Source: a virus. Taken from it: a DNA stretch of 42,509 nucleotides. This document shows positions 6,939 through 42,509 of the stretch, in pieces. Each line of letters opens with the position of its first letter. Position 1 is the first letter of the stretch. Location: the IMG/VR virus record IMGVR_UViG_3300045988_081127, positions 1-42,509 of that record; one strand, written 5' to 3'. Under the pieces are notes generated by a model, which searched no databases, had not been told where the DNA came from, and was given only the letters and a program-made list of their open reading frames with translations. The translations under genes and the position numbers were made by a program.

Positions 6939-6975
6939 CGTGGCAATCTCCAGACGCCACGGGGTTTTTCTTTTG
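6939..6975 (+). terminator. Intrinsic terminator at the convergence of the plus early arm and the minus late arm
   Basis: CGTGGC (6939-6944) / GCCACG (6956-6961) stem followed by GGGTTTTTCTTTT. Confidence 0.65.
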
Positions 6976-6979
6976 TGCT

Positions 6980-10952: not shown

Positions 10953-13130
10953 TTACTCGTAAACTAAATAAAGCTCGCCGGTCGCTAATGGTGACGTTCC
11001 TGCCGTCAGGTCAGTGGTGCCGCTCGTGGCCTTGACATACCCCGAGTCATTTGTCAGCTGAGACGTCTTTGTCGGGATCGTCGGCTTGTTTTTGATCGCC
11101 GTCACCCCCGATGTCGCATTCCAGTCCGCCTGTTGCTGTGTCGTCAGGAACCCCGAATCATTCGTGAGCTGGGACGTTTTTGTCGGGATATCGCCCCTGA
11201 GGTTCGTGATGGCCGTTGCGTTGTCGGTAGCCTTCTTTTCAACTGCCGTCAGGCGCGTGCCCTGCGAAGTCACGTCAGCCGCAGAACCAGCACCAATATT
11301 AGCGCGTGCCTGCGTCTGTTGCGCCGCTGTCAGCGTCTGCGCGACGTACTTCACGCTATTGCTCTGATTCGCCTGCTCGGCGTAATACTTCGCAGAGTAT
11401 TTTGCCGTGGCGCCTGAGCCCTCAACCGGGCCATCCTCTTTTGAAGCCCAATCCTTCGCTTTTTGCGCAGAAGCAGATGCCTCGCCTGCCTTCGTGCTTG
11501 CAGTCGTAGCACTTCCCGCGGCCGCAGTTTTGGACGCATTAGCCGCAGTCGCAGAATTGGCGGCATTCTTTTCGGATGTGGCCGCCGCAGTCTTCGATCC
11601 TGCCGCCGCACTCGCAGAACTGGCCGCCGCAGTCTCGGATGTCTTGGCCGCGTTCTGCGAAACCTTTGCCGCGTCTGCTGAAGTCTTCGCCGCAGAGGCC
11701 GAACCAGCCGCCGCCGTTTTTGAAGCATCGGCCGCAGAAGCAGAACTAGCCGCCTCAGTTGCCTTCGTGCTTGCAGTAGTCGCACTACCGGCCGCCGCGT
11801 CCTGCGACGCTTTGGCCTTCGTTTCCGATGCCTTAGCGTTGTCTTGCGACGTCTTTGCGTGCGTCTCGGATGTCTTGGCCGCCGCCGCACTAGCCGCCGC
11901 CGCAGAGGCCGATGCCGCCACGGTATCCTGAGCGCCCTGCGCCGCTTCTGCTGATGCCGCCGCCGCCGATGCGCTTTCTGCCGCCGCGGTCTTTGACGCC
12001 GCCGCCGCGGTCTCGGACTTCTTCGCGTTGTTCTCAGACGTCTTGGCGTTCGTTTCGCTGGTCTTTGCCGCGCCTGCGCTCGTGGCCGCCGCGTTCTTGG
12101 ACGCAAGGGCGTTGGTCTCCGACGTCTTTGCCGCCGCCTCACTACCTGCCGCGGCATCCTGCGAAGCCTTGGACGCGTTCTCGCTAGCCTTGGCCGCATC
12201 CTGCGAAGCCTTAGCGGCCGCCGCACTCGATGCCGCCGCAGTCTGCGAAGCCTTCGCCGCATCGGCTGATGCCTTCGCCGCGCTATTCGAACTCCCGGCC
12301 TGCTGAGCGTAGTACTTCGCCGAGTAGTCGATCTCAGCGCCATCCGGCAGGTTGTTTTCTGTCACCTTGCCGTCGGTCTTCACAGCCCATGCCTGAGCGA
12401 GCTGAGCATTCCATTTGGACGAATAGCCGTCATCGTCGACGGCGCCCGTCATCAATGTCGCCCAGCGCTTAGACAGGTCACTGCTCGCCTTCGATTCGCC
12501 AGCAGATGCGGCGGAGTTCTGCGCCTGCGTCGTGGCCTCTGTGACCTTTTCGGTCATTACGGCCAAGTTCTGATTGATTTCCTCGCGGATGGCGTCCGTG
12601 TCAGTGACGGCCTGCATAGCAATTCGCTTCGCATCTGCCGCTGTTGCGTTCGCAGCATTGGCCGTTCCTACAGCTTGAGTCGCCGCGGCATTCGCATTAT
12701 CTGCCGTCGTCTGCGCGGCATTGGCCGCCGTGACTGCCTGCTGAGCCGTCGTAAGCGCAGAGGTGGATGTCGTTACGGCCTGAGCGGCATTGTTAGCCGC
12801 TTCTGTCGCCGTAGTGACGGCATTGGCGGCATTACTCTCCGCTGTCTTAATCCGGCCGTCAAACGTGTTAACAGTAGCGGTTAAGGCGTTGACCTTGCTA
12901 TTTGCAGAATTCGCAGTAGCAAGCGCCTCAGTCGAATTCTGCTGAGCCTTATTTGCCGTGTCGAGCGCTTCAGTCGCCTTTTTCAGCGCCTCGGTCGCGT
13001 CGCTCGTGGCATCGAGCATGTAATCGCCGAGGTTGTTAATCGCGTCCTCTGTCTGCGTAAGGACCGACTGCCCGCTTATGGCGCCGGTCGGCGTTTTGAC
13101 GTAATGGAATCGAAATTCTTTTGATGCCAT
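10953..13130 (-). CDS. Tail fibre protein with long Ala/Ser/Thr-rich repeat shaft
   Basis: AAKASQDAAKASENASKASQDAAAGSEAAAKTSETNA-type repeats. Duplicated C-terminal IPTKTSQLTNDSGF/Y motif. Confidence 0.8.
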   Translation of the reverse strand: MASKEFRFHYVKTPTGAISGQSVLTQTEDAINNLGDYMLDATSDATEALKKATEALDTANKAQQNSTEALATANSANSKVNALTATVNTFDGRIKTAESNAANAVTTATEAANNAAQAVTTSTSALTTAQQAVTAANAAQTTADNANAAATQAVGTANAANATAADAKRIAMQAVTDTDAIREEINQNLAVMTEKVTEATTQAQNSAASAGESKASSDLSKRWATLMTGAVDDDGYSSKWNAQLAQAWAVKTDGKVTENNLPDGAEIDYSAKYYAQQAGSSNSAAKASADAAKASQTAAASSAAAAKASQDAAKASENASKASQDAAAGSEAAAKTSETNALASKNAAATSAGAAKTSETNAKTSENNAKKSETAAAASKTAAAESASAAAASAEAAQGAQDTVAASASAAAASAAAAKTSETHAKTSQDNAKASETKAKASQDAAAGSATTASTKATEAASSASAADASKTAAAGSASAAKTSADAAKVSQNAAKTSETAAASSASAAAGSKTAAATSEKNAANSATAANASKTAAAGSATTASTKAGEASASAQKAKDWASKEDGPVEGSGATAKYSAKYYAEQANQSNSVKYVAQTLTAAQQTQARANIGAGSAADVTSQGTRLTAVEKKATDNATAITNLRGDIPTKTSQLTNDSGFLTTQQQADWNATSGVTAIKNKPTIPTKTSQLTNDSGYVKATSGTTDLTAGTSPLATGELYLVYE

Positions 13131-21735: not shown

Positions 21736-22656
21736 TTATTTCCTTGTTAGGTGGCGTCGTCTTGAGTTCTCGGATCGAGTCACCCATTCGCAATTTTCAG
21801 GACAATAGTCGCCGCCCGGATCAATGCGGTCGATTGTCAAACCCTCTTTATAACCGTGCTTCATTGCCCAGTCGTAAAAGGTCTGAAAATCTTTCCACTC
21901 ATCGCAAACTTTTACCCCTTTTGCCCCGTAATATTTAAAGACTTTGACGTTCGGATTGTTACACCGATTCTTCATGCTTTGATGGACGGCATATAAAGGA
22001 GTTCCAGCTTTACCATGTGTAATTTTTGCTTCGGTGGCGTGTTTTAAGCCAAGGCATCCACAAGATGTCGTGTGACCACTTCTAAGACTAGCAGTTGTCG
22101 GGAAAACGATTTTTCCGCACTCACAAACGCATTTCCATTTTTGTCCACCTGAGTTTGTTTTTCCAGCCTTTTCTAAAACCGTTAAGGAACAAAACTTTTG
22201 ACCGCTAAGATCAATCGCTTTGGGGCTTGGCCGTCCTGCCATTGACAGGCAACGTTTTCGTGCCATTTCTTTCTGGAGACACCCGCAAGAGCGAACTTTT
22301 CCGTTTCTTAAAAGCGTTCCAGAAACCTCATGTTTGTTCCCACAGTCGCACTGGCACAAGTAGCGTTTTTCTCGTCTGTTGCTCTTTACTTCGGACAAAA
22401 CAACAAGCCTTCCGAATCTCTTTCCAATCATCGGTATGGCCCTGCGTTTCTGCCCCTTAATCTTTTCAATGGCTCTTTCGATATTTAAGCATCCACACGA
22501 TTTTGTGTTGCCAGATTTCAGGGCGGTGGTGCTGACAACTTTATCATTTCCACAATCGCAACGACATAGCCATTTAGCCCTGCCGTTTTGAGTCTCGAAA
22601 AAAGATAAAACTGTCAAGCGGCCGAACTTTTGTCCTGATAAATCAATGCGTTTCAT
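21736..22656 (-). CDS. Cys-rich three-module Zn-ribbon protein with HNH-like C-terminal domain (free-standing homing-endonuclease-like gene)
   Basis: Three units DLSGQKFGRLTVL...W.C.CDCG...L.SG...SCGC, then YYGAKGVKVCDEW...LTIDRIDPGGDYCPENCEWVT. Visibly lower GC than the flanks. Confidence 0.6.
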   Translation of the reverse strand: MKRIDLSGQKFGRLTVLSFFETQNGRAKWLCRCDCGNDKVVSTTALKSGNTKSCGCLNIERAIEKIKGQKRRAIPMIGKRFGRLVVLSEVKSNRREKRYLCQCDCGNKHEVSGTLLRNGKVRSCGCLQKEMARKRCLSMAGRPSPKAIDLSGQKFCSLTVLEKAGKTNSGGQKWKCVCECGKIVFPTTASLRSGHTTSCGCLGLKHATEAKITHGKAGTPLYAVHQSMKNRCNNPNVKVFKYYGAKGVKVCDEWKDFQTFYDWAMKHGYKEGLTIDRIDPGGDYCPENCEWVTRSENSRRRHLTRK

Positions 22657-28197: not shown

Positions 28198-29364
28198 TTA
28201 TCGAATGAACTGCTTCAAAAAATCCTCGTCGCTCTTGGGCGCCGAATCCATTGCGCCGCTCGGGGCGGCGGTCTTGACCGACTGCAAAGCGGCGAAAACG
28301 TGCTTAGCCGCGCTTGCCGGGACGTTCTTGACGCCCATGGTCTTTACGGCATCAAGATAGATCGCGTCGGCGCTATCGTAGGCCATCGGGTCGACGTTGC
28401 CCAGCACGGACTTAACCTCGGTCGCCGCGCGGTACTGCGCAGACAACTGCCCGCGCACCGTCTTGGCAATCAAGGCCGCGTCCATGGCGCCGCCTTCGGG
28501 CTTGGGTTCGTCCTTGGGCTCGTCAGAGTCTTCGGCTTTGGCCTCGTCCTTGGGCTCGTCAGCGTCTTCGGCGCCTTCGGGCTTGGCAGGCTCTTCGTCT
28601 CGCGTGCCTTCCGTTTCCTGCACAGCCTCGTCGACCTTGCTTTCTTCGAACTTCGCGTGAGATTCAGCAAAAGCGCGCACAAGTGCGTCCTTCTGCTCGG
28701 GCGTCAGTTCAACGCCTGACTCGTCGATAGTCTTGCGTGCAAACTCCGTGAAGTCGTCACACGCCCCATCAACCTTTGTTTCTTCACTCATCGTGATTCC
28801 TCTCGGTTTTTCGTCTGAGACATAACAGTAGGGAGCTCTACCTTCGTGAACTAGTGCCACGTGATTGCAAGCGAGCTCGCGCATCACGAAGTCATAGGCA
28901 AGCCCGTCCGGAGTCTCCCCGGGCGTGAAATCGGGCTTATATCGGTATCCGCAACTGAGGTCACGCAGTGTGCCGTCCTCAATTGCCGAAATTGCTTTTT
29001 CATCCCATACGCTGAGCGCGTTGGTAATGTATGGCGGCTCCCACTTCGCGCTGGTGCCAACGGTGCCGACGCGTAATTCCTTGTTAGGGTGCTCGGCACT
29101 ATCAAACTTGTGTTCGATTAAAAGCGGCACGCCGTTGAATGTCGACAGTGCCGCCTTAAGCTCGTCAGGGTTACGCCATCCGTAATAAATCCGGTCAGGG
29201 TCTAACTGCCGCTCTTCCCAACCAGGAATCTCGCGCCCGTAGTAGGGCGCCACGTGGTCGCGGGTTAAATTCGATGTCTTGACCTGCAAAAAGCCGTTTT
29301 TGTCGCGCGTCCGCGCCGACTCCATCACAACCTTTTCATCAAGCGCTAAGAGTTCTTTTTCCAT
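28198..29364 (-). CDS. Prohead protease/scaffold-like protein
   Basis: N-domain resembles DUF2213-type head proteins. Central acidic repeats DADEPKDEAKAEDSDEPKDEPKPEG. Helical C-terminus. Confidence 0.55.
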   Translation of the reverse strand: MEKELLALDEKVVMESARTRDKNGFLQVKTSNLTRDHVAPYYGREIPGWEERQLDPDRIYYGWRNPDELKAALSTFNGVPLLIEHKFDSAEHPNKELRVGTVGTSAKWEPPYITNALSVWDEKAISAIEDGTLRDLSCGYRYKPDFTPGETPDGLAYDFVMRELACNHVALVHEGRAPYCYVSDEKPRGITMSEETKVDGACDDFTEFARKTIDESGVELTPEQKDALVRAFAESHAKFEESKVDEAVQETEGTRDEEPAKPEGAEDADEPKDEAKAEDSDEPKDEPKPEGGAMDAALIAKTVRGQLSAQYRAATEVKSVLGNVDPMAYDSADAIYLDAVKTMGVKNVPASAAKHVFAALQSVKTAAPSGAMDSAPKSDEDFLKQFIR

Positions 29365-31157
29365 AGCTTTCTACTCAGTAGTGGACGATACGTACACTGG
29401 CAGTTATGAACCACGGTATTATTAACAATGTACCAATTAACCGACGTTTGCAGGTTGTACACATGTCCAAAAAATTCACGGAATCGCACTTCGCTCACGC
29501 GGCTAAGGCCGTATCCGAAGGCAAGCGCCTCATTCAAATCGCAAAAGAGATCGGGTTTTCCGCCGACATCATCAGCAAGCACCTTCGGAAGCGAGGAATA
29601 GAAATCCCCGTTTACCGCCGCACGGGCGATCGCATCCAGCTGCCCGAGGATGAAATCATCACCATGTACCAAAGCGGACAATCCGAGCAGGCTATTGCCA
29701 AGCATTTCAACGTTTCCCGTCATGTCATCCGGCGAAGGCTCGAAAGAGCTGAGGTCAAAATGCGCGGGATTCAAGAAGCACAGCTTTTGCGTTTTGCTCA
29801 AGCTTCTGAAGAAGCTCGAAAAGCGATCACAAAGGCCGCCAATCTTGCCGTCACCGGAATTACTCACCCGCACGATGAACTCGTCCGATGGGCTCAATCC
29901 CGAGAGCAAACGGGCAAAGTCGGCCGCTTCGGCAAAGGAGAGGTCGAATTTGCCACATACCTGACTCAGCTCGGCATTGACTTCGTTCGTCAGAAGGCCG
30001 TAGACGTCTATAACGTCGACTTTGCCGTCGGACCCGTCGCCGTGGAATTGACCTGCGGAACCCTCAGATACCGAGGCGGGAACGCCGTCGAGAACAAGCG
30101 AATCAAAAAGCTCCTCGAATGTGGGTATAACCCGATCTGCGTTGAGTTCTCTGATGAGGGAGCAATCTGTCCGCTTTTTATGGATCAAATAATCTCCCTT
30201 GTCGAGAAGGCGCGCGGGCTTCCACCCTTTAAGCGTGAGTACTGGGTGATTCGGTGTCGCACTACACACTGTGCCGTCGTCCGTAATGAACTCGGCCAAT
30301 TTTCCCGTGTAGAGACGCCGATACAGCTTCATTGGGAATGGAAGATCGTTAAGCTTTGATTCCCCAACAAAACAGGCCGGCAATTCCCCGGGGAGGACGT
30401 AACGCCCAACATCGCGGTCGTAAAGTCCTTTTTTTAGGTCGAACTTTTTGCCGTCCATCGCCTTGTGAGTTTCGCGGCTCGTGTGTTTGCCGGGAACGTG
30501 AATCCATTCGCCCTGCTCTACGCCAACCTCAAGATCATTCGCGCGGCACAGGGCCTCAGTCGCCTTGTTGCACTGATCGCGGGCAATAAAGTCCGCGCGG
30601 CGCTGAGTGATGTCGTATCGCTTGGATAGTTCGGACTTAAGCCCCGCCACGTCTCGCCCGTCGGTCACGGCCCGCATTACTAGCCCTTCGACCTCTTGCA
30701 GGTATCGGGAACTGATGGACTTAATGAGCGACGTGTTGGCGTTCACAAGTGCGTCAAAAGCGTCTTGCGAAATCTGCCCCTTGTCAAAACGCAGGTCGAA
30801 CGCCTCAAACCCCGAAGCCCGTAGCGCTGAGTTCTGCGCCCGGTCGACGTGGTCGCGCGTCTTCCGCACGAACCAGTCCGCCGTGTCTTCGGCAAATTCC
30901 CGCGTGCTTTCCTCCCACTTCTTACGCATTCGATCAATGATCTTTTGCAAGCGCTCAGCGGGGGACTCACCCTTAGCGTCTTTCGCAATCTGAGGCTCGA
31001 CCTTGCGATATAGCCCCTCAAGCTCTTTGGCGACGTCTTGCGCCATCTGACGCACAAGCGCCCGCAGCTTCCCGGCGTACGCCTTCCGTAGCCCTGCATT
31101 AGGCCGCACGGCTCGTATGCGTACGTCAGTAGACTGCGCCCGCCTTGTCGATGTCAT
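29346..31157 (-). CDS. Head morphogenesis protein (Mu F / SPP1 gp7-like) interrupted by an intein
   Basis: N-extein residues 1-261 carry ...FIARDQCNKATEAL...WIHVPGKHTSRETHKAMDGKKF.... Hint blocks follow from C262. The C-extein is CQCTYRPL. Confidence 0.8.
   Translation of the reverse strand: MTSTRRAQSTDVRIRAVRPNAGLRKAYAGKLRALVRQMAQDVAKELEGLYRKVEPQIAKDAKGESPAERLQKIIDRMRKKWEESTREFAEDTADWFVRKTRDHVDRAQNSALRASGFEAFDLRFDKGQISQDAFDALVNANTSLIKSISSRYLQEVEGLVMRAVTDGRDVAGLKSELSKRYDITQRRADFIARDQCNKATEALCRANDLEVGVEQGEWIHVPGKHTSRETHKAMDGKKFDLKKGLYDRDVGRYVLPGELPACFVGESKLNDLPFPMKLYRRLYTGKLAEFITDDGTVCSATPNHPVLTLKGWKPARLLDKGDYLIHKKRTDCSLIRELNADRVIPTFEELFDSLVLDGVPASVSEGSAGQFHGDGSDGKVDVIDVYGLLTNEVNAELSQVCGKFDLSFAEAADFARLLSGLSPSDEFIVRVSNSGDGKIGGLCDRFSSFFRSLSKTQKLCFLNPAHFDLSSFEPSPDDMTGNVEMLGNSLLGLSALVHGDDFILGQLDAIARAAVNGDFYSSLPKVLADDVGGKPDLFCDLNEALAFGYGLSRVSEVRFREFFGHVYNLQTSVNWYIVNNTVVHNCQCTYRPLLSRKLWKKNS
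29403..30374 (-). mobile_element. Intein (324 aa, Cys1 ... His-Asn / Cys+1)
   Basis: CFVGESKL (block A), ATPNHPVLTLKGWKPARLLDKGDYL (block B), FFGHVYNLQTSVNWYIVNNTVVHN|C (blocks F/G). Codons checked against the DNA. Confidence 0.8.
29406..30359 (+). CDS. Antisense ORF inside the intein: HTH-HTH + Vsr/PD-(D/E)xK-like endonuclease candidate (alternative start 29463)
   Basis: LIQIAKEIGFSADIISKHLRKRGI and SEQAIAKHFNVSRHVIRRRLERA are HTH-like units. GEVEFATYLTQLGIDFVRQKAVDVYNVDFAVGPVAVELTCG...ENKRIKKLLECGY is a nuclease-like core. C-ending codon bias. No clear SD. Confidence 0.5.
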   Translation: MNHGIINNVPINRRLQVVHMSKKFTESHFAHAAKAVSEGKRLIQIAKEIGFSADIISKHLRKRGIEIPVYRRTGDRIQLPEDEIITMYQSGQSEQAIAKHFNVSRHVIRRRLERAEVKMRGIQEAQLLRFAQASEEARKAITKAANLAVTGITHPHDELVRWAQSREQTGKVGRFGKGEVEFATYLTQLGIDFVRQKAVDVYNVDFAVGPVAVELTCGTLRYRGGNAVENKRIKKLLECGYNPICVEFSDEGAICPLFMDQIISLVEKARGLPPFKREYWVIRCRTTHCAVVRNELGQFSRVETPIQLHWEWKIVKL

Positions 31158-32613
31158 CGCGCTCCTCCGTGGTCGTGCTGCTCATTTGGCCAAACGGGTC
31201 CTCAGGCGCCCCCGGGGCTTCACCCTCAAGGTCGCCATACGGATGGTCCTTGGCATTACTCAACGCCGCGCGGACTTCGTCCTCCGAGAGGACTCCACGG
31301 TCTAGATAGACGGCGGCCGTGTCGGCCATCATCTTCTTGACCTCTGCCGTCGTGCGCTCGTCATCTTCGTCCAGTGAGCAGAATTCGAAGCTAAGACTAG
31401 GATCAATATCGCCGAAAAGATTGATCTGCAAAATGCGCAGAATCGCCTCAAGCGGGCGCCGCAGTATCTTTTCCTGCCGCGTGGAGATTAAGTCGGCCTG
31501 CAACTTAATGTCGCTCTCGCCCGTGGCGTTAAAGCCCGACGGCGACAGGCCCAGCGTCTTCACTACACCGCTTTGGTTGACGGACACGACGAACTCAAGC
31601 GACTGGCGCACGATATCAGTCAGGCCGGTAATCGGCGTGTTGACCTGTACAAAGTCTTCTTTGTCCTTATCGAGAAGGCCAACGCCGCTATTGTCGCGGA
31701 ACTTCGCAAAGAACTTCACGCGGTCGCTCACCGGTTGCCACGACTTGCGGGCAAAAAGCTGAGCGCCCAAATCCGTTTTAATGAAGCTCGTCGAGAACTT
31801 TGTCAGAAGGGTATTAACCTCCTCGCGGTTCTTGCGGAAGTGCGTCACGTAGTCCGAAAGCAATTGAGCCTGAGCGATTCCGAAGAAGTTATAAGAGGGC
31901 TTAAGTAAGTCCGGCACCTCGTTTTCCACAAGGCGGATCAGGCGCGACGTATGCACCGCCGTTCCCATGATGTAAAACACCGCGGGTTTGTAAAAGTCTT
32001 CTTTCAACGGGTCAGACGCGTTAAAGCTCTGCGGCGTCGTAAAGATCGGATCAATGACGCGGAACGCGACGCGGTCTTTGAGCTCAGTCGAGCGCGCTGT
32101 CTTGTTAAGCACCTCGTCCGGCTTGGCGTGCCCCGTGTCGATAAACACGAAGGCGCCGCCCATCATGCCCATGGTCGTCAGCGCCTTATAAAGCGTATCG
32201 CGCAACCCGATGCGGTCAATCTCTTCCTCTAGTGCCTTCTTGCGCTTGTCATCATCACACTTGATTTCAATCCACGCCCGCAACATTTCATCGGTGCGGG
32301 TCTGAATGCACAGGCGAATGAGCGCGTCTTGCGAAAGCTGTTGCAAAACGCCGTAGCCCACAAAGCTGACAAGGCTTGAGATTGCTGACCATTCGAACTT
32401 AGGCACAATGCCGCCCGAAAAAGCCGCGTCCATAGCACCATCCAGCTTTTTATAGTGCGCTTTAGACCCTGCGAGAGATCGCGCGGGTTTGAGCAGTTCG
32501 CGAATGTCCTTCTCTTGCGGGATAGCGTCGACAACCGTCGCGGTGCCGTCGTAGTCGCCGGAGACCTCAAAGCCAGAGGCCGGGCGTTTCGTCTTCCGAG
32601 ATTTTGAAGCCAT
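31126..32613 (-). CDS. Portal protein
   Basis: 495 aa between the large terminase and the Mu F-like gene. Acidic C-tail. Confidence 0.75.
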   Translation of the reverse strand: MASKSRKTKRPASGFEVSGDYDGTATVVDAIPQEKDIRELLKPARSLAGSKAHYKKLDGAMDAAFSGGIVPKFEWSAISSLVSFVGYGVLQQLSQDALIRLCIQTRTDEMLRAWIEIKCDDDKRKKALEEEIDRIGLRDTLYKALTTMGMMGGAFVFIDTGHAKPDEVLNKTARSTELKDRVAFRVIDPIFTTPQSFNASDPLKEDFYKPAVFYIMGTAVHTSRLIRLVENEVPDLLKPSYNFFGIAQAQLLSDYVTHFRKNREEVNTLLTKFSTSFIKTDLGAQLFARKSWQPVSDRVKFFAKFRDNSGVGLLDKDKEDFVQVNTPITGLTDIVRQSLEFVVSVNQSGVVKTLGLSPSGFNATGESDIKLQADLISTRQEKILRRPLEAILRILQINLFGDIDPSLSFEFCSLDEDDERTTAEVKKMMADTAAVYLDRGVLSEDEVRAALSNAKDHPYGDLEGEAPGAPEDPFGQMSSTTTEERDDIDKAGAVY

Positions 32614-33781
32614 AACCTCGCGCCTTTATGTAGTCGGATAGGCTATACCTAAGTCCGTCAATTATATGATTGTTTTTGTCTAAGACGACCGGCAGTACCT
32701 CGCCAGTCAGTCTATCCGTTTTGTAAGCGTAAAGCCTGAACTCGTCCGCAGTATGCACGCACCGCGGGTCAATAATGACCTTGTCAAAGCTGCGGATAAA
32801 GTTAATGCCTTCCTCGATGCTCTCCGGCCATTTCTCGGCGCCCTCGATGTTGAACCCGTGGCGCTTCAGATAGCTGATAGTCTCAGGCCGAGCGCAGTCC
32901 GCCTTAATTGGCCATTTCGTCGACTCCGGCACCGAGCGATACAGCTGAGGCATTTCGTCGATTTCAACCCCGACGCCGTAAGCCTCATGGTCAATATACA
33001 GGCGGTTATCCAAGATAAAGCACCGAACCAATGTCGACGGGTCACGCGCAAAACCAAAGTCGGCGCCGAAAAACAGCCGGTCTGCCTGTTGCCAAAGATC
33101 GTCCGGGATCGTCTCAACGACGTACTTGCCGCGGAAAATCTGCGCCCCGCTGATGGTGAGCGGGAAGCCTTCCCAAATGTGCAAATACTTTTCGTAATCG
33201 TTCGCCTTGTCCCATTCCATCTGCTCGCGCAGAACTTCAGGGAAATACGGGTTGTCCGTGTAATTGACCTTGCGGACGTAGGCGCCCGGGGGCGGTGCCT
33301 CTAGAAAATCGTTCGTTGGGTCGTCGACCGTGAGCGGGTTGAACGTTAGCCACAACTCTGATCCCGGCTTACGGATGGTCGGAATCAGCACGTCCCACGA
33401 CTTACGCGAGACGGATGACGCCTCCTCAATCCAGCAGATATCAATGCCTTCCTTTGACCTAATCGAGTTCTCATTGCGCAACAGGCCGGAGAAGATAAAG
33501 CGGCTACCGGTGCGCCTATGCTCAATCTCCGACTCTTTGAAGTCGAAGCGGTCAAATAGGCCCATGCGCTCCGCTGTATCTTTCAGCGTCTGATACGACG
33601 AGTCGCGGATTGAGTTCTGCACCTCGCGACAACACAAAATGCGCACCCGACCGAAATCAGCCATGGCAATGAGCGCGCGTGCGACTGCCCAGCTCTTGCC
33701 ACTGCCTCGGCCTCCGTAAAAGACCTTGTATCTGTGCGGCCTGTACAGTTCTGCGAAAGGGGCGGCGCTTCCGGTTGTCAT
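32567..33781 (-). CDS. terL: Terminase large subunit (PBSX/XtmB-like)
   Basis: Walker A YGGRGSGKSWA, CWIEEAS Walker B-like motif, C-terminal nuclease half. Confidence 0.85.
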   Translation of the reverse strand: MTTGSAAPFAELYRPHRYKVFYGGRGSGKSWAVARALIAMADFGRVRILCCREVQNSIRDSSYQTLKDTAERMGLFDRFDFKESEIEHRRTGSRFIFSGLLRNENSIRSKEGIDICWIEEASSVSRKSWDVLIPTIRKPGSELWLTFNPLTVDDPTNDFLEAPPPGAYVRKVNYTDNPYFPEVLREQMEWDKANDYEKYLHIWEGFPLTISGAQIFRGKYVVETIPDDLWQQADRLFFGADFGFARDPSTLVRCFILDNRLYIDHEAYGVGVEIDEMPQLYRSVPESTKWPIKADCARPETISYLKRHGFNIEGAEKWPESIEEGINFIRSFDKVIIDPRCVHTADEFRLYAYKTDRLTGEVLPVVLDKNNHIIDGLRYSLSDYIKARGYGFKISEDETPGLWL

Positions 33782-34149
33782 TACTTTTTACCGCGTGCGA
33801 GCGCGTTATAAATATCCTGCAAACCCTCAGGCGGTTTCTCGGTTGTCGTCATTTCGCCTTCGAGGCGCTGAGTTTCCTTCCAACCGCATCGAGCCTTTAA
33901 GTAAAAGATGATCGACGCCGTATCGCCTGATGCGATCTTTTCCATCAACTTGCTACCGACGAATAGATTGGCTTTAGCCCGACCTCTTTTTATCGCTTGT
34001 GCAAATTGTTCATTTTCTTGCTTCCGTCTTCTCAGCGTGCAGTAGGAAACACCGAGCGCCAGCGCAATATCCTCCTCAGAACTGCAAATACGGGCGGCCT
34101 GCTCCACCTTTTCAAGGTCGATCGGCATTCTTGCCCCTTTTGGTCTCAT
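33781..34149 (-). CDS. terS: Terminase small subunit (HTH)
   Basis: Trimmed to ATG 34149 (GGAGG SD). IALALGVSYCTLRRRKQENEQFAQAIKRGRAKA is an HTH. TAATG coupling to terL. Confidence 0.65.
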   Translation of the reverse strand: MRPKGARMPIDLEKVEQAARICSSEEDIALALGVSYCTLRRRKQENEQFAQAIKRGRAKANLFVGSKLMEKIASGDTASIIFYLKARCGWKETQRLEGEMTTTEKPPEGLQDIYNALARGKK

Positions 34150-34189: not shown

Positions 34190-34849
34190 TCATCGCACCG
34201 CAAGGTACTTATGCACCTGTACGGATACGCGCCAGTCGTTTGCCATGGCGGTATCCACACAGAGTCTCGTAGCCTCGGCCCCCTGAGATATCGGCTGAAG
34301 ATAGATCAGCGCGCCCGGGGCGTGGCTCAGACAGTTTCGCAACTGGTCGATTTCCTTTTGCGTCGCCACGGCCATTTTAATTTCGTTGGCTCGGGCAAGT
34401 GCTTCGGGGAGCACCTTGCGCCCGCCAGCTTGGTCGATCTTTGGGCTAACAGTAACCCAAACGGTTTTACTGACGTTCCCGATCGGCTCGGTGCCGCTTG
34501 TTTCGATTTGAACCGTGCGGCCCTGCTTTTCGAGTAAGTCGCAAAGCGGCGCGAGATCAAACAGACAGGGTTCGCCGCCCGTCATTACAACGTGCTTGAC
34601 CTTCGGGAACTTCTCGGCGATCGTTGCCGCCAGCTCCTCTGCCGTCGTCGTTGCGTAATGAGCGCAGTCCGCTTTTTGCAGGGCGAAGCTCAGAGGCTTG
34701 TCGTTCGGTTCTCCGAGCTTCCATGTATGTTTAGTATCGCAGAAGGAACACTGACATTTGCACCCCTGAAATCGAATAAAGACAGAGGGCGTGCCCGTGT
34801 ACGAGCCTTCACCCTGAATAGAGGCAAAAAGCTCATTTATATAAAGCAC
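34190..34849 (-). CDS. queE: 7-carboxy-7-deazaguanine synthase (radical SAM)
   Basis: LFASIQGEGSYTGTPSVFIRFQGCKCQCSFCDTKHTW N-terminal signature. Confidence 0.85.
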   Translation of the reverse strand: MLYINELFASIQGEGSYTGTPSVFIRFQGCKCQCSFCDTKHTWKLGEPNDKPLSFALQKADCAHYATTTAEELAATIAEKFPKVKHVVMTGGEPCLFDLAPLCDLLEKQGRTVQIETSGTEPIGNVSKTVWVTVSPKIDQAGGRKVLPEALARANEIKMAVATQKEIDQLRNCLSHAPGALIYLQPISQGAEATRLCVDTAMANDWRVSVQVHKYLAVR

Positions 34850-35264
34850 TGAACAGCCTCCATTCAGCAGAACATTTCCGCGTCTCCTCGACGATGCATC
34901 GCGTCACCGTGACGCCCGTATCCTTCAGGACGATCGGGGCGACGATGGTCGCGAGGTGCTGCGCAAGGTTCTCGGCGGTCGGATTGAACGGCACCACGAC
35001 AACCGTCGGATCGAGCTTCTTAAGCGCGTCGGCGAGCGGGTCGTTTTCCCACACAAGGAAATGATGATCCCACGTCGCCTCAAGCCACTGGCAGAGGGTC
35101 GACTTAATCACAGAGAAGTCAATAACGCGACCCACGCCGTCAAGGTCACCGGCACACTCGAATGTGATGCGGTAATTGTGCCCGTGAAGGTGGGCGCACT
35201 TGGATTCATGCCCGTAGACACGATGCCCACAGGAAATATCGTGATATCGAGTACAAACGATCAT
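34833..35264 (-). CDS. queD: 6-carboxytetrahydropterin synthase
   Basis: Trimmed to ATG 35264 (ATGA overlap with the queC stop). SCGHRVYGHESKCAHLHGHNY motif. Confidence 0.85.
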   Translation of the reverse strand: MIVCTRYHDISCGHRVYGHESKCAHLHGHNYRITFECAGDLDGVGRVIDFSVIKSTLCQWLEATWDHHFLVWENDPLADALKKLDPTVVVVPFNPTAENLAQHLATIVAPIVLKDTGVTVTRCIVEETRKCSAEWRLFSALYK

Positions 35265-35953
35265 CGGAGTGCCTCGTAGTTCTTGAAACCTTCGGCACGG
35301 AGGCGACAGGCCGGGCACTTGCCGCATCCGAAGCCCCACACGTGACGGGTTACGTGGTCGCCTTCGTAACACGTATGAGTTTCGTTGACGATGAAATCAA
35401 CGAACGTCTTGCCGCCGACTTCCTCAGCCGTCTGCCATTCCTGCGCCTTGGATTTGAACATAAAAGGTGACAGGAGGCGTATGGGATATTCCATCCCTGC
35501 GGTCAGAGCTTTCTCCAGCGGCTCAATAGCTTCGTGTCGGCAGTCGGGATAGCCCGAGTAGTCCGTTTCCGAGATGCCTAGTAAAACGTCGTGCGCGCCA
35601 ACTCGGTAGGCATATGCCGCCGCGTAGGTAGCGAAAAGAAGATTTCTGCCCGGCACAAACGAGGTGGGCAGTTTCTTCGTCTGATCCATGACAATCGGCG
35701 AGTCCTTCGTCAGGGCACAGTCTGAAAGGGCGCCGAAGGACTGGAGGTCTACAATCAAGTCATCACGAAGGGAATTGACGCCCAAAACGTTCTGAATGTT
35801 TTTCAGGATGCGTTGGCGGCAGTCCATTTCGACAGCGTGGCGCTGTCCGTAGAAAAACCCGATTGTGAAAACCTCGTCATACTTCTTCAGAGCCATCCCG
35901 AGCGCCGTGGTGGAATCCTGACCACCGGAAAAGCAGACTACCGCTTTACTCAT
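35261..35953 (-). CDS. queC: 7-cyano-7-deazaguanine (preQ0) synthase
   Basis: Trimmed to MSKAVVCFSGGQDSTT (PP-loop). C-terminal Zn cluster CYEG...CGKCPACRLR. 230 aa. Confidence 0.88.
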   Translation of the reverse strand: MSKAVVCFSGGQDSTTALGMALKKYDEVFTIGFFYGQRHAVEMDCRQRILKNIQNVLGVNSLRDDLIVDLQSFGALSDCALTKDSPIVMDQTKKLPTSFVPGRNLLFATYAAAYAYRVGAHDVLLGISETDYSGYPDCRHEAIEPLEKALTAGMEYPIRLLSPFMFKSKAQEWQTAEEVGGKTFVDFIVNETHTCYEGDHVTRHVWGFGCGKCPACRLRAEGFKNYEALR

Positions 35954-36599
35954 TTTTAACGAACTCCAAAAACTCAGCCCGAGCCTTATGGTCTTCACGG
36001 AAAACGCCGCGCATGATGCTCGTCGTCATCTGTGCGCTTTCGTCCTTAACGCCGCGCCAAGTCATGCAGGAGTGAGACGCCTTAATGACGATTGCGATCC
36101 CCAGCGGGTTAATCTTCTCCTCAAGAAGGCCGGCAATCTGTACGGCAGCTTCTTCCTGAATCTGCGGACGGGCGCAAACCCAATTTGCTAGGCGCGAGAA
36201 TTTTGAGATGCCGATTACCCGGTCTCGTGGAATAACGCCAATCCACGCCTTCCCGAGGATAGGCGCGAAGTGATGTGAACAAGTCGAACGAATGGTAGTG
36301 CTGACCACCAACATATCATCCAACTTTTTCGTGTTCGGAAAGTCGGTAGCCTTCGGCGCCGGAAGGTAGCGCCCGGCAAAGACTTCGGTCATGTACATTC
36401 GAGCAATTCGCTCAGCCGACCCCTTTGTGTTGGGATCGTTTTCGACGTCAATGACAAGCGCCCTGAGCAGAGCCTCAACCTTTTCCTCGACATCCTTCTG
36501 AATAATCTTTAGATCGTCTTTGCTCAGGTACTGGCTGATATTGTCGTTCGCTTTGAAGGGGACGCCCTTCTCGCGCAGTTTTTCGGCGTAGTCGATCAT
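35946..36599 (-). CDS. folE: GTP cyclohydrolase I
   Basis: DPNTKGSAERIARMY, STCSHHFAPI and HSCMTWRGV motifs. Confidence 0.85.
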   Translation of the reverse strand: MIDYAEKLREKGVPFKANDNISQYLSKDDLKIIQKDVEEKVEALLRALVIDVENDPNTKGSAERIARMYMTEVFAGRYLPAPKATDFPNTKKLDDMLVVSTTIRSTCSHHFAPILGKAWIGVIPRDRVIGISKFSRLANWVCARPQIQEEAAVQIAGLLEEKINPLGIAIVIKASHSCMTWRGVKDESAQMTTSIMRGVFREDHKARAEFLEFVKNE

Positions 36600-37462
36600 C
36601 TTTCCAAAATTCTCTGAAAGTTTCTAAAAAGAACCATGACTTGCTGCTGGTTCGAAACGGACAGAAATAACTTCGTTTTCAGGTTTTTTTCGTAGTCCAA
36701 CGATTTCAAAACCCATGAGTAGTAGCTAACTTCCTGATGCAGACTTGGCTTAGTCATGCTTGCGGAATCAGTCCAGTTCTCTTTCTTGGCCAGCGCCTTC
36801 GGATCAAATCCCCACCGCGTCAAGATTTCAAGAATCTCGCGCCTAGGCCGGGAAAGGAAATCCGACTTTTGCAGGCTTGTCATCTTTCCGCGCCCGCAAT
36901 AGATTGATAGAGTCCCAAACCTCTGAGCCGACAAAAGGGATGAGCTGTCGCACATATAGGGTTTGTAGAACTTCAAATATTGTTCGTTCGTAAACCCTAA
37001 TAAATGAACCTTTCTCCCATTTGCGTGCTTCATCACACGGCGGACGATGGATTTTCGGTTCTTGTTTCCGACCAGCCCGCCAAGGGCGACCAAATCCGAG
37101 GTCTCATAAAGTTCGTCGAGGCGGCTCAGGTCTTCATTGTGCGTAAATACGGGAACCGGCGTAAAACCTCGCTCGCGCATCTTCTCGTAGTTCTGAGCGG
37201 TCTTGTCCGGATCGCCCACCACATCGAGCTGGAAATAGCGCCACGGCTTGACAGGCATCGCCTCGATGAAGCGACAATAATCATCCAGCGTAATTACCTT
37301 CCCAGCGTTATGCGCGGTAAACGCGCCCGAGTCAAGCAAAAACCGGTATGGCAGGGTTTGATTTTTCAGGACTTCAAATACATCCGGTTTACAGTACGGA
37401 TAGGCAACAAGGAAGTTAAGCCTAGGAGTATTCGTATCCAATTCCGGCGGCGTCGAGTGCAT
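36596..37462 (-). CDS. dpdA: DpdA-like DNA-guanine transglycosylase
   Basis: LLDSGAFTAHNAG...LVALGGLVG...VHLLGFT resembles phage DpdA/TGT-like proteins and is adjacent to the preQ0 genes. Start set at ATG 37462 (the track M1 is TTG 37504). Confidence 0.7.
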   Translation of the reverse strand: MHSTPPELDTNTPRLNFLVAYPYCKPDVFEVLKNQTLPYRFLLDSGAFTAHNAGKVITLDDYCRFIEAMPVKPWRYFQLDVVGDPDKTAQNYEKMRERGFTPVPVFTHNEDLSRLDELYETSDLVALGGLVGNKNRKSIVRRVMKHANGRKVHLLGFTNEQYLKFYKPYMCDSSSLLSAQRFGTLSIYCGRGKMTSLQKSDFLSRPRREILEILTRWGFDPKALAKKENWTDSASMTKPSLHQEVSYYSWVLKSLDYEKNLKTKLFLSVSNQQQVMVLFRNFQRILER

Positions 37463-37982
37463 TCGTGATAACTTCCTTGGCCTGCGCCTCGTCTTCGGCG
37501 GCAATCTTCAAAACGATGCGGGAGCCGGTATCGGACTCGCCATCCTCGTCTAATTCAGGGATATCAGAATCCCACCCGTTCAGAACGTTGCCAATCTCGA
37601 CCTCAGAGAATCCTGTTTTATCGAGGTCGTAGCCTTCAATCTTCAAATCCTCGAACTCGATTTTTAACAGTTCATCGTCCCAGCCCGCATCTAGCGCCAC
37701 TTTGTTATCGGCAATGATGTAGGCGCGTTTCTGCACGTCGCTCAGTCCGGCTAGTTCGATCACCGGGACTTCACTCATGCCGAGTTTGCGCGCGGCGGCT
37801 AGACGGCCATGGCCTGCGATAATTCCGTTTTCTCCGTCGACTAAGATCGGATTTGTCCAGCCGAACTCTTTAATTGACCCGGCGATTCGGGCGACTTGAT
37901 CGTCTGAATGCGTGCGGGCATTACGTGCATAGGGGATTAAATCCTCAATGCGGCGATAGGATACTTTCAGCTTTTCGGGCAT
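37422..37982 (-). CDS. ParB N-terminal (sulfiredoxin-like) domain protein
   Basis: IPYARNARTHSDDQVARIAGSIKEFGWTNPILVDGENGIIAGHGRLAAARKLG. Acidic C-half. First gene after the late terminator. Confidence 0.75.
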   Translation of the reverse strand: MPEKLKVSYRRIEDLIPYARNARTHSDDQVARIAGSIKEFGWTNPILVDGENGIIAGHGRLAAARKLGMSEVPVIELAGLSDVQKRAYIIADNKVALDAGWDDELLKIEFEDLKIEGYDLDKTGFSEVEIGNVLNGWDSDIPELDEDGESDTGSRIVLKIAAEDEAQAKEVITNALDAAGIGYEYS

Positions 37983-38017
37983 AAAAAAAGGCCATCAGGA
38001 GGGAGCTTCCTGATGGC
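37983..38017 (-). terminator. Strong intrinsic terminator immediately upstream of the late genes (tR'-like)
   Basis: 10-bp stem GCCATCAGGA/TCCTGATGGC, 7-nt loop, then TTTTTTT on the minus strand, directly abutting the ParB-like ATG. Confidence 0.8.
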
Positions 38018-38168: not shown

Positions 38169-38174
38169 ATTATA
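38169..38174 (-). promoter_or_regulatory. Perfect TATAAT -10 element (PR'-like late promoter candidate)
   Basis: Minus strand ...TTAGCCTTTTGAGGGCTGAGGCTTGTATAATTCG. About 40 nt after the Q-like stop and about 180 nt before the terminator. The -35 is poor. Confidence 0.5.
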
Positions 38175-38214: not shown

Positions 38215-38640
38215 TTAACCGTACGGATTACGGCCCTCGGCTCGACATATGGCCGCCTGAATTTGCTCAAGCGCCTGCCGTAAACGCTCCTGAATCGCGC
38301 GCAGGTTGACGCTGAGAAGGCGCCCTAAAAGCGCCCTGTCTCGCACGCTGTAGACGTACCACGCCAGTAGCAGGTCTTTCGAGCGCGCGTCTTTCAAGCT
38401 CTGCCACGCGGCATCAATCAACCAGCCTTCGGCATAATCACCCCGCGAGAGCGCCCGGGCCTGCGCCTCCTCATCGTCCGGCCATCGACGCTGATCGTCC
38501 TTCCCGAAAAGTTTCATATGCCGATATAGCATCGTTTCAGCGTAATGCGGTCGGTCTTTGACGACGCGGCCCCAAATCTGCAAACGTTGATCCAAGGCGG
38601 CGAAATCGGTCGGGATTTGCAGGACGATATAGCGCGGCAT
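38215..38640 (-). CDS. Putative late-gene regulator (Q-like antiterminator or sigma-region-4-like)
   Basis: Trimmed to ATG 38640 (TAATG overlap with rusA). LDQRLQIWGRVV and a C-terminal HTH-like LLAWYVYSVRDRALLGRLLSVNLRAIQERLRQA. Position between rusA and the late promoter. Confidence 0.5.
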   Translation of the reverse strand: MPRYIVLQIPTDFAALDQRLQIWGRVVKDRPHYAETMLYRHMKLFGKDDQRRWPDDEEAQARALSRGDYAEGWLIDAAWQSLKDARSKDLLLAWYVYSVRDRALLGRLLSVNLRAIQERLRQALEQIQAAICRAEGRNPYG

Positions 38641-40490: not shown

Positions 40491-40605
40491 CCTAGAGTTC
40501 GCGCCCGCCTAAACAATCAGCGGCAGTGCGGCGTCGGGCAAAAGGCGCCTAGAGTTCGCGCCCGTCTAAACAATCAGCGGGCAGTGCGTATTCAGGCAAA
40601 AGGCG
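40491..40605. repeat. Tandem ~57-bp direct duplication spanning the helicase stop codon
   Basis: 40491-40547 versus 40548-40605: CCTAGAGTTCGCGCCCG(C/T)CTAAACAATCAGCGG(G)CAGTGCG...GGCAAAAGGCG, a few mismatches and 1 indel. Confidence 0.85.
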
Positions 40606-41535
40606 CGGCAGTACCCTTTCCGCGCTGGTGCAGAACACGGCGCCTCTCTTGTCAAACCACAGCGGAACAAGCCCCATAAAGTCGCCGTTTCGTTGTTTAG
40701 AAATACGCAGGAGGGAGTCAGCTTCGTCCTGATCCTCAGTCGGCGTGAGTTCGCGCTGTTCTGCTAGTCGCTCCTTATCGAGGTTCCTGCGGATCAAAAC
40801 GAGGTTGTCAATTTGGTCAACGATCGCGGACGAGCCGCGCACCGCGAATTTATCAATCTCGTCCTTCTCGCTTCCGCCCTTTCGGACGTGATGAACGATG
40901 TGAATATGCACTGAGAGCTCACGGGCAATCTGACAGCACCCCTGAACGAATTCCTTCTGCCCGGTGTAGTCATCCTCCGCATGGACAACCTTCATGAGGT
41001 TGTCAATGAAGATGTGTTTACAGCCAAATTCTTTGGCCATCACCACCGACACGCCTAAGACGCCTTCAATCGTTATGGCCTGCTTCTCGTTTGAAAGGAG
41101 CAGACCCGCGTCCCGGCAGTACGCTAAGAAGGCTTGTATTTTCTTCTCGTTCGCCTGAGCGTCACATTTCGTAGGGAGGCGCCCCCATCCTTGCCGCAGC
41201 ATTCGATAAAGCGTCCGCGCGGGCGTCATCTCAAACGACTGAATGCCGACCTTCTGCCCGGCGGCTAAAAGCTGTAAGGCAACCTGCCCTGTGAGTAAGC
41301 TCTTGCCGTTCCCGTTCTGCCCGGCCCACATCGTAACCTCGCCTTCTCTAAAGGCTAGACGCTGGTCGAATGCGCACGGCGTGCCCGCTAAGCGGCCTTC
41401 GATGATGCCAAATAAAGGGTCTTCAAAGTGGTCAGGCCGATAAATCACGTTGCGGGCGGACTGTTGCCACGCGGCGAAGGCGGGCGAGTAGTCGCGCGGT
41501 TGCATCGTCATTTCACTTATTGTCTTGTCTTGCAT
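40549..41535 (-). CDS. DnaB-like (RecA-fold) replicative helicase
   Basis: Walker A WAGQNGNGKSLL, Walker B-like HIFIDNLMKV, KQRNG near the C-terminus. Start chosen at ATG 41535 (GGAGA SD); 41583 and 41511 are possible. Confidence 0.7.
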   Translation of the reverse strand: MQDKTISEMTMQPRDYSPAFAAWQQSARNVIYRPDHFEDPLFGIIEGRLAGTPCAFDQRLAFREGEVTMWAGQNGNGKSLLTGQVALQLLAAGQKVGIQSFEMTPARTLYRMLRQGWGRLPTKCDAQANEKKIQAFLAYCRDAGLLLSNEKQAITIEGVLGVSVVMAKEFGCKHIFIDNLMKVVHAEDDYTGQKEFVQGCCQIARELSVHIHIVHHVRKGGSEKDEIDKFAVRGSSAIVDQIDNLVLIRRNLDKERLAEQRELTPTEDQDEADSLLRISKQRNGDFMGLVPLWFDKRGAVFCTSAERVLPRLLPEYALPADCLDGREL

Positions 41536-41953
41536 AGGGTAGTTCTCCGAATTTCTGCCAGTGTTTGTTTTTAAGGTAAACAAGAATGCCGTCAGGTGTC
41601 CAATAACACGACTTGTCTCGTGCCTTGTCGCGGATCATCATCGCCAACTGGCGCGCTCTCCTCTCTGATCCGCGCACGTATTCGATCTCACAAGTCCGGT
41701 CGGTCCACACCTCGGGCGGGATGTCTGCTATGTTGTCGGACTCTCGTATGTAGTAGTTAATAGCGCCAAAAAAAGGTGCCTTCCCGTCTCCACACTCGAA
41801 CCCATCAGGAATTAGGCAATAGGCTGGCGCGAGTACGAATTTTATCTGCTGTTGTTCTTTCGGTCTGTATACGCCTATTTCTACGTCTGTGCCCTCAAGG
41901 TACCTACGAGAATTAAAAAAGGCGTCGATTTCTTCGGGCGTCAGCATGATCAT
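41513..41953 (-). CDS. Hypothetical protein (146 aa) between initiator and helicase
   Basis: ATGA overlap with the initiator stop. Confidence 0.5.
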   Translation of the reverse strand: MIMLTPEEIDAFFNSRRYLEGTDVEIGVYRPKEQQQIKFVLAPAYCLIPDGFECGDGKAPFFGAINYYIRESDNIADIPPEVWTDRTCEIEYVRGSERRARQLAMMIRDKARDKSCYWTPDGILVYLKNKHWQKFGELPYARQDNK

Positions 41954-42509
41954 CCAAAAAGCAGCCCAGCCGCTTCCTCCTCCTCTTCTTCGTCGGGTTT
42001 CCTGTTTGAAACCGCCGCACGCTTAAATTCATCACCTGCCTGAGTCTGCGTGACCTGTCGGCGTCCTCCGCTAGCTCCAAACTGGTTGCTCCTTCTGAGC
42101 CAGTTCCGCCACGTCGCTGGCCAGTCGCGTTTTACTGCTCCTGCTCCTGCCTTCGCTCTCCAGTAGTCTAGGAAGCAATCGAACTCAAAAGCTATCTGAT
42201 CTGTGGATAAGTCGGGTCGTACTTTAATCGCCTGCTCCCTGAGTTCATCAGTCAGCTCTGTGAACGTGATACGGCTTCCTTTTTTTTCTTTTTCGGGTTT
42301 AGGGGTAACGTCGTTACCGGTAACGACGTTTGGGGAAGCCTCGTTGTGCGAGACCGAGTCGAGCACAAGAGGAGCGTTAGCGTCCCCTTGTTCTCTTATA
42401 TGTTCTCTTATATGTTCTTTTCGGGGTAAAGATTTATACGGGGTCCCCGTAAACATCTTTAGGGGGTCCCCGTAAACATCTTTAGGGGGGTAAACATCTT
42501 TAGGGGGGT
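41950..42509 (-). CDS. Replication initiator, C-terminal part; ORF open to the right window edge
   Basis: The frame of track ORF 41950-42456 stays open upstream through the iterons (...YPPKDVYPPKDVYGDPLKMFTG...). C-domain FEFDCFLDYWRAKAGAGAVKRDWPATWRNWLRRS, acidic tail EEEEEE. Confidence 0.65.
   Translation of the reverse strand, partial: PPKDVYPPKDVYGDPLKMFTGTPYKSLPRKEHIREHIREQGDANAPLVLDSVSHNEASPNVVTGNDVTPKPEKEKKGSRITFTELTDELREQAIKVRPDLSTDQIAFEFDCFLDYWRAKAGAGAVKRDWPATWRNWLRRSNQFGASGGRRQVTQTQAGDEFKRAAVSNRKPDEEEEEEAAGLLFG
42390..42421. repeat. 12-bp tandem GTTCTCTTATAT x2 plus a partial copy, in an AT-rich tract next to the iterons
   Basis: Copies at 42390-42401 and 42402-42413, partial at 42414-42421. 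Encodes HIREHIRE in the initiator. Confidence 0.8.
42449..42509. repeat. Three further iteron copies (one separated by a 5-nt TCCCC spacer)
   Basis: GTAAACATCTTTAGGGGG at 42449-42466, then copies at 42472-42490 and 42491-42509. A degenerate copy lies at about 42424-42445. Confidence 0.85.

Follow-up and report, generated by a model that had tools for sequence, protein, structure and literature searches.

Replacement of guanine in DNA by 7-deazaguanines is already established as an anti-restriction strategy of bacteriophages, and the closest described examples are the DpdA1 systems of the Queuovirinae (CAjan, 9g and Iggy) and the modules of the cluster B mycobacteriophages Rosebush and Bipper. 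In CAjan DNA, 2′-deoxy-preQ0 (dPreQ0, the deoxynucleoside of 7-cyano-7-deazaguanine or preQ0) takes the place of ~32% of G and is abolished in a dpdA deletion mutant (PMC6884629); it accounts for ~28% of G in Rosebush DNA (PMC6884629) and for ~16.5% in Iggy DNA (PMC10484667). CAjan and Iggy make dPreQ0, whereas 9g adds Gat-QueC and makes 2′-deoxyarchaeosine (dG+). In bacteria, DpdA requires a ParB-like ATPase, DpdB (PMC10164549). Here we describe a six-gene cassette of the same type, located at 34190-37982 on the minus strand of IMG/VR virus record IMGVR_UViG_3300045988_081127, the 42,509 nucleotides of which (positions 1 to 42,509, referred to as the window) were analysed at full length and look like a complete phage genome of ~42.5 kb. 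The established picture is left unchanged by this cassette.

The cassette comprises genes for a ParB-like and a DpdA-like protein, followed by folE, queC, queD and queE (Table 1). We read it as an intact DNA-modification module that gives preQ0 in the DNA of the phage, with a probability of about 0.8, the product chemistry and the part played by the ParB-like protein being predictions. FolE, QueD, QueE and QueC would together convert GTP to preQ0, and DpdA would then swap guanine for preQ0 in double-stranded phage DNA after replication, leaving dPreQ0 at a subset of G positions. A preliminary description, made from the letters alone, had placed six minus-strand open reading frames (ORFs) here; all are present over that span, and the motifs quoted for them (CSHH and HSCM, SGGQDS with a Cys cluster, CxxxHGHxY and the Cys motif of radical S-adenosylmethionine (SAM) enzymes) were all found in the translations.

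The DpdA-like protein is linked by homology to DpdAs of known phages. An alignment of its family (A1) was compared by HHalign with CAjan gp35, a genetically validated DpdA (99.6%, E 6.5e-24), with Rosebush gp2 (99.3%) and with Bipper gp3 (99.7%), and tblastn searches with the protein reached the DpdAs of 9g (7e-17), Iggy (1e-15) and Seurat (within 1e-15 to 7e-17), with 34-35% identity over the core to those of 9g and Iggy; the earlier call of a DpdA is borne out by these matches. In all, tblastn matched 188 phage records whose annotation is DpdA or queuine tRNA-ribosyltransferase, and the protein also matches phrog_887, ‘queuine tRNA-ribosyltransferase’ (9e-35). When the window's clade was aligned with the CAjan, Rosebush, Bipper and Vibrio phage K251 proteins, D44 (in DSGAF), D80 (in LDV), H153 and D172 (in CDSS) were invariant. 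Bacterial DpdA and tRNA-guanine transglycosylases (TGTs) have three invariant Asp residues, acting as general acid/base, in base recognition and as nucleophile, together with a His (PMC10164549), and the conserved His marks DpdA1 and bacterial DpdA (bDpdA), whereas DpdA2 is without it (PMC6884629). By alignment, D44, D80, D172 and H153 fit the Asp triad and His of bDpdA and TGT. A confident AlphaFold2 (AF2) model of the protein has a mean predicted local distance difference test score (pLDDT) of 91.8, and a Foldseek search of BFVD returned models of phage ‘queuine tRNA-ribosyltransferase’ with template modelling (TM) scores of up to 0.82, among them a protein of Vibrio phage nt-1 and one annotated from the QTRT1 structure. 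Finally, dpdA is linked to FolE, QueC, QueD and QueE genes, both here and in almost every one of 83 related loci that carry the window's DpdA clade.

Several results speak against the DpdA assignment. The protein has no match in Pfam, NCBIfam or PADLOC; among PDB sequences, none was found by phmmer or by either of two profile searches; Foldseek with the AF2 model returned only generic TIM barrels from the PDB (E >= 2.5e-3); hhalign to the single E. coli Tgt sequence was non-significant; and no Cys or His is conserved in the last 110 residues of the family, and so no TGT-like Zn-binding CxCxxC...H. In this permissive and non-significant hhalign comparison, D44 and D172 lie opposite D89 and D264 of E. 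coli Tgt, which are expected, from the homology of this enzyme with characterised TGTs, to act as general acid/base and nucleophile, and the DSGGF, GGL and LxG motifs fall in register. The preliminary description had held that a lack of TGT-fold homology on profile search would argue against a DpdA. Such a lack was indeed found in Pfam, NCBIfam, PADLOC and PDB, and it does not discriminate, since the DpdAs of Rosebush, Bipper and K251 likewise fail to match Pfam; it is therefore not taken here as a refutation.

On this homology, we place the protein, as a DpdA, in the DpdA1-like superfamily, within a clade seen only in metagenomes. No member of the clade above ~36% identity was found in deposited phages. 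The clade is nevertheless large: a family-profile search returned 460 clusters (at 50% identity) with E <= 1e-30 and 6121 with E <= 1e-3. The listed relatives bear no Pfam domain and, where named in their source, are called hypothetical or uncharacterised. Since Pfam, NCBIfam and PADLOC miss this clade and the sources describe its members as hypothetical, modified phage genomes are under-counted in metagenomes.

The assignment of the four preQ0 genes held when each ORF was searched against Pfam, NCBIfam and PHROG profiles. FolE matches Pfam GTP_cyclohydroI (PF01227) at 3.2e-46 over profile positions 2-178 of 179, passing the gathering score, and has both CSHH and HSCM; its NCBIfam equivalog score of 155.5 is under the cut-off of 181.6. 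QueC passes TIGR00364 (203.5 bits, cut-off 150.3), matches Pfam QueC at 8e-64 and carries SGGQDS and a CGKCPAC cluster, and QueE passes TIGR04322 (260.9 bits, cut-off 200) and has CxxxCxxC. QueD, in which the motif reads CAHLHGHNY, matches Pfam PTPS (1.1e-23, gathering score passed) and phrog_2389 (6.8e-49), and scores 69.4 against TIGR03367, under the cut-off of 89.25. The sub-cut-off NCBIfam scores of FolE and QueD are as expected for divergent phage copies, and the prediction of a complete set of four full-length enzymes with their catalytic motifs kept is solid.

The first gene of the cassette had been treated in the preliminary description as a bystander. Residues ~1-130 of its product correspond to a ParB/Srx N-domain and are followed by a C-terminal tail of ~50 amino acids (aa). 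The score against Pfam ParB_N (PF02195) is 25.4 bits, 0.9 under the gathering score of 26.3; close homologues bear a precomputed PF02195, and matches were also obtained to phrog_620 (1.6e-57) and to PADLOC MTase_II (N-terminal part, 5e-39). Against ParB/Noc sequences in the PDB (E 3e-4), GHGR is aligned to GERR and ADN to IEN, and both GHGR and ADN are invariant in an alignment of the ParB-like family (A2). The protein is predicted to have a ParB_N fold, with the GxxR nucleotide-binding and acidic-Asn hydrolysis motifs both in place, and may act as a nucleoside triphosphatase (NTPase).

Far from being a bystander, the gene is a conserved neighbour of dpdA. In 75 of the 83 loci, dpdA is directly preceded, on its own strand, by a ParB homologue, irrespective of que gene order, and two of the eight loci without this adjacency lie at contig ends. 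The adjacency holds in three loci (L006, L007 and L043) with no terminase detected in the flank examined, and in one locus the two genes appear to be fused in frame in a single ParB-DpdA ORF. Among deposited phages, Bipper gp1 and Rosebush gp1 match the window's ParB-like protein by BLASTP (4e-8 and 1e-3, respectively). In Cellulophaga phage phiSM (KC821616; L186), an annotated ParB-like gp51 overlaps the 3′ end of the DpdA1 gene gp52 of a preQ1 cluster (5938-7112); gp51 gave non-significant BLASTP and hhalign results against the window's ParB family, and the pairing there is that of the record's annotation. Expressed by itself in E. coli, DpdA1 of phiSM was reported to show no activity (Cui et al. 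2023, PMC10516641), which is suggestive of a need for ParB, in a single case where other causes are possible. The two principal surveys of 7-deazaguanine systems in phages make no reference to ParB; the CRB2 genome note alone speculates on a dpdB-like ORF1.

Taken from its gene context, the ParB-like protein may be a functional partner of DpdA and a non-orthologous analogue of DpdB, at odds that come close to even. It would then serve as an NTP-binding, DNA-loading or clamp-type accessory of DpdA, a counterpart to DpdB in role and not in descent. An orthologue of DpdB was considered and rejected, there being no PADLOC Dpd match and GHGR standing in place of DGQQR, and any functional parallel would accordingly be convergent. 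This counts against a partnership of the bacterial kind, as do the DpdAs of 9g, nt-1 and VH7D, which are active without any ParB (PMC10516641, PMC6884629), and the CAjan dpdA, next to which no ParB is found.

These ParB-independent DpdAs also favour an alternative, namely that the ParB-like gene belongs to the late or packaging backbone of the phage (its product might be a nuclease, a partition-type DNA binder or an accessory of the pac site or of terminase), with dpdA and the que genes inserted beside it and no role in base exchange. The nearest relatives of the ParB N-domain (59-73% identity) are not linked to DpdA, and such genes fill the same slot before terS in DpdA-less phages. However, a survey of these genes (L093, L094 and L106-L185; IMG/VR and ENA contigs) found that ParB_N in the DpdA-less phages is not free-standing by terS: just upstream of terS, 51 of 80 IMG/VR loci have it joined to an N6/N4 DNA methyltransferase (MTase). 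A backbone gene is also at odds with an adjacency to dpdA that extends to other que orders and to loci in which no terminase was detected, with the apparent fusion, and with the recurrence of the pair in Rosebush, Bipper and, by annotation, phiSM. We consider the backbone explanation unlikely, though it deserves to be taken seriously.

At other ParB_N loci the partner is a ~355-aa P-loop protein or a ~246-aa protein beginning MASAKDI..VKRVHYSG. The occurrence of ParB_N beside phage DNA-modifying enzymes has been noted previously, with no function assigned (PMC12783734), and the variety of partner genes suggests that ParB_N is a general adaptor for such enzymes. A broader proposal, which we put forward tentatively and at a little under even odds, is that DpdA of this clade, of Rosebush/Bipper-type actinophages and possibly of phiSM needs a small ParB_N NTPase that was recruited independently of DpdB; more generally, ParB_N would be an exchangeable DNA-loading adaptor of phage DNA-modifying enzymes, DpdA and N6/N4 methyltransferases among them, and its expression from the start of the late operon would let modification accompany packaging. 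Such a need would explain why some cloned DpdAs, such as phiSM DpdA1, were inactive alone. As a separate observation, one metagenomic relative (P0377, 504 aa) has its DpdA-like domain at 209-496, preceded by an N-terminal domain of ~200 aa beginning MKRVVVITSCTGKK. A ParB fusion was considered for this extension, which was judged by eye alone not to be ParB-like and may serve DpdA as a further partner or modifier domain.

The base expected in the DNA is 2′-deoxy-preQ0. QueC passes the canonical equivalog model, and the pathway should therefore reach preQ0; domain scans detected no QueF, DpdC (PF03883), glutamine amidotransferase (GATase) or ArcS domain in any sizeable ORF of the window, and it is on this account that no further step is predicted and dPreQ0 is the best prediction. 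The preliminary description had likewise seen no gene for QueF, ArcS/Gat-QueC or a DpdC-like protein and had predicted the same base, which agrees both with the scans and with CAjan, Rosebush and Iggy, phages of the same gene content. The DNA could instead contain a derivative of preQ0 (7-amido-7-deazaguanine (ADG), preQ1, archaeosine (G+), 7-carboxy-7-deazaguanine (CDG) or an unknown base), whether through a phage ORF that went unrecognised, through a host enzyme or through a different substrate preference of DpdA. The window does have many small early ORFs without annotation, DpdA2 is promiscuous and Rosebush contains traces of dADG (PMC10516641, PMC6884629), and some phages with DpdA only carry dADG (PMC8306585). 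MED16, considered as a counter-example to the dPreQ0 prediction, encodes DpdA only and so is not comparable. With the canonical QueC, with none of the additional domains found, with every gene of the cassette accounted for, with close relatives that share exactly the same six genes and nothing more, and with dPreQ0 as the major modification in the cited phages of the same content, a derivative base is improbable.

An RNA role for the cassette, by supply of a queuosine precursor or by action of the TGT-like protein on tRNA, would suit the TGT-superfamily ancestry of DpdA and the name ‘queuine tRNA-ribosyltransferase’ given by PHROGs and most GenBank records; it is very unlikely, since the closest characterised homologues (CAjan, 9g, Rosebush and Iggy) act on DNA, the window encodes no tRNA, genes for QueA, QueG and QueH were not found, and both the DNA-binding ParB domain of the partner and the packaging-gene neighbourhood point to DNA.

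The module has been destroyed in two close relatives, at ~92% nucleotide identity, whose loci are related to window positions 34780-37481. In one (L096, 4650-5330), a 2,033-bp deletion has fused ParB with the C-terminal end of QueC; the other (L008, 6459-8201) has tnpA (Y1 transposase) and tnpB of the insertion sequence family IS200/IS605 in place of the region from the middle of dpdA to early queE. These losses, which weigh against the main reading, show that the module is dispensable; its behaviour is that of an accessory unit open to exchange. That the window itself holds a decaying, non-functional remnant is very improbable in spite of these losses, as its six ORFs are intact, full-length against their profiles and in possession of their catalytic motifs, and several relatives at ~93% nucleotide identity retain the whole module.

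Table 1. Features of the cassette and of its flanks in the window.
Feature	Position	Strand	Details
141-aa orphan protein	38215-38640	minus	late-regulator position, after RusA and before the gap
TATAAT hexamer, candidate -10 of a late promoter	38169-38174	minus	read from the sequence, within the 232-nt gap
Strong intrinsic-terminator-like hairpin	37991-38017	minus	10-bp stem with 6 G-C pairs, then CTTTTTTTAT ending in the parB start codon
ParB-like	37422-37982	minus	186 aa
DpdA-like	36596-37462	minus	288 aa
FolE, GTP cyclohydrolase I, first step from GTP	35946-36599	minus	217 aa
QueC, 7-cyano-7-deazaguanine (preQ0) synthase	35261-35953	minus	230 aa
QueD, 6-carboxytetrahydropterin synthase	34833-35264	minus	143 aa
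QueE, radical-SAM 7-carboxy-7-deazaguanine synthase (E. coli type)	34190-34849	minus	219 aa, GTG start
terS, small terminase subunit	33781-34149	minus	phrog_309, 6e-21; AGGAGG Shine-Dalgarno
terL, large terminase subunit	32567-33781	minus	Pfam Terminase_3 and Terminase_3C; TIGR01547, 182.7 bits

The six genes overlap their neighbours by 41, 4, 8, 4 and 17 nucleotides (nt) from parB to queE, and 40 nt separate queE from terS, with terL next. The translational coupling claimed in the preliminary description fits these overlaps and is a deduction from them. The start of dpdA is an ATG at codon 15 of a 302-aa ORF that opens with TTG, the same start being found in all 288-aa homologues, and the start codons of the module are consistent with gene calls on five related contigs. 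At 48.8%, the G+C content of dpdA is below that of its surroundings.

A gap of 232 nt precedes parB, and the hairpin and TATAAT hexamer within it mirror the lambdoid layout of Q, PR′, tR′ and late genes. Against such a layout, no consensus promoter scored in the region upstream of parB, the hexamer has no good -35 and was not reported by the consensus promoter scan, and the 141-aa orphan protein in the regulator's position has no Pfam or NCBIfam match and matches one phrog of unknown function at 5e-4. This orphan has only six close homologues, and its AF2 model (pLDDT 45) is unusable; the label ‘Q-like’ that it had been given finds no homology or structural support and was a guess from position. 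The placement of the cassette at the head of the late operon stood up better, as regards its position before terS, behind a terminator and with no gap onward to terS and terL, and its co-transcription with the packaging genes, which had been asserted on that ground, is plausible and in our view likely. Because the overlapping genes sit behind a terminator and head the packaging and structural operon, modification would be expected late, on DNA soon to be packaged.

In domain scans, the remainder of the window encodes structural proteins (terminase, portal, a Mu-F-like protein, capsid protein, a DUF3383 protein, baseplate J and spike) and non-structural ones (ERF, a DnaB-like helicase at 40549-41583, RusA, holin and an M15 endolysin). 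No deposited phage gave a megablast match to the module or to 25 kb of the window, and among species-representative genomes only nine contigs from metagenome-assembled genomes (MAGs) were matched, at <=55% identity.

Some further features of the window were observed in passing. Its two ends (1-55 and 42426-42509) share a repeat array, with AAACATCTTTAGGGGGGT present three times at the start and variants of 18 nt and 23 nt at the end; this looks like one iteron-like array that was split when a circular or permuted assembly was linearised, and it adjoins genes for replication, at 41950-42456 and, in the case of the DnaB-like gene, at 40549-41583. At 40491-40606, a 57-nt unit is present in two tandem copies that match at 89% and extend over the start of this helicase gene. 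The product of the Mu-F-like head morphogenesis gene (29346-31157, minus) has 603 aa as against 279 aa in relative L001; the insert of ~324 aa begins CFVGES, ends VVHN|C and matches Pfam Intein_splicing at 2.9e-5, under the gathering score, and is probably an intein. In another relative (L002), an intein is found in the large terminase instead. Between tail genes, in the patch of lowest GC in the window (0.485), a Cys-rich ORF of 306 aa (21736-22656, minus) has three GRLTVLS...CxCxCG...GCL repeats and no Pfam match, and may be an inserted homing-endonuclease-like gene. Finally, a repetitive protein of 725 aa rich in Ala, Ser and Thr (10953-13130, minus), with many tandem repeats of 21-42 nt in a region of strong negative AT skew and ~61% GC, is probably a tail fibre.

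In related phages, dPreQ0 blocks many restriction enzymes. DNA of the phage in the window is likely to be resistant to many of them and to give an altered nanopore signal at G. The locus is of moderate interest, mainly for its conserved ParB partner, which is directly testable: the ParB-DpdA pairing bears on whether DpdAs of phages depend on an NTPase as the bacterial DpdA/DpdB pair does, and also on the function of the ParB_N domains so often attached to DNA-modifying enzymes of phages.

Compared with known systems, the cassette finds parallels in phages and in bacteria. The Salmonella Montevideo Dpd system combines a TGT-superfamily transglycosylase with a ParB-superfamily protein and inserts preQ0, in parallel to the pair in the window, and it shares the Asp triad and His with the window's DpdA. 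The Dpd models of PADLOC and NCBIfam match neither the DpdA-like nor the ParB-like protein; DpdB is a ~45-kDa protein of the DndB/SspE type with DGQQR, whereas the partner in the window is a 186-aa protein of the ParB_N type with GHGR, and the two are therefore analogous. The window also has no DpdC and none of the DpdD-K restriction genes, and its cassette would serve phage counter-defence, not host restriction-modification. The phage ParB_N-MTase modules, upstream of terS, likewise head the late operon in the same genomic slot; their ParB genes overlap a DNA-modifying gene and have an N-domain 59-73% identical to that of the window; their partner is an N6/N4 MTase, and their ParB tail runs into the MTase N-terminus, unlike the small tail found here.

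Among the phage 7-deazaguanine systems, those of the Queuovirinae have a homologous DpdA and the same four preQ0 genes as the window, whereas the CAjan module lies among replication genes beside DNA polymerase and includes additional small ORFs as well as a gene for a putative preQ0 transporter. Rosebush gp1-gp7 are ParB-like, DpdA, QueC, QueD, QueE, FolE and TerL, with the same six functions as in the window, and in Rosebush and Bipper the module stands directly before the terminase with the ParB-like gene first and dpdA second, as it does here. The order of the que genes differs between Rosebush and the window; the homology of the Rosebush and Bipper ParB-like proteins to that of the window is weak; the actinophage DpdAs (357-385 aa) are ~27-32% identical to the window's and have a long C-terminal insertion; and virion type and probably host phylum differ from those of Rosebush, the window encoding baseplate J, spike and DUF3383 proteins. 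The cassette belongs with the already known dPreQ0 systems of the Rosebush/CAjan type, and what it adds to them is a DpdA clade that has so far lacked annotation.

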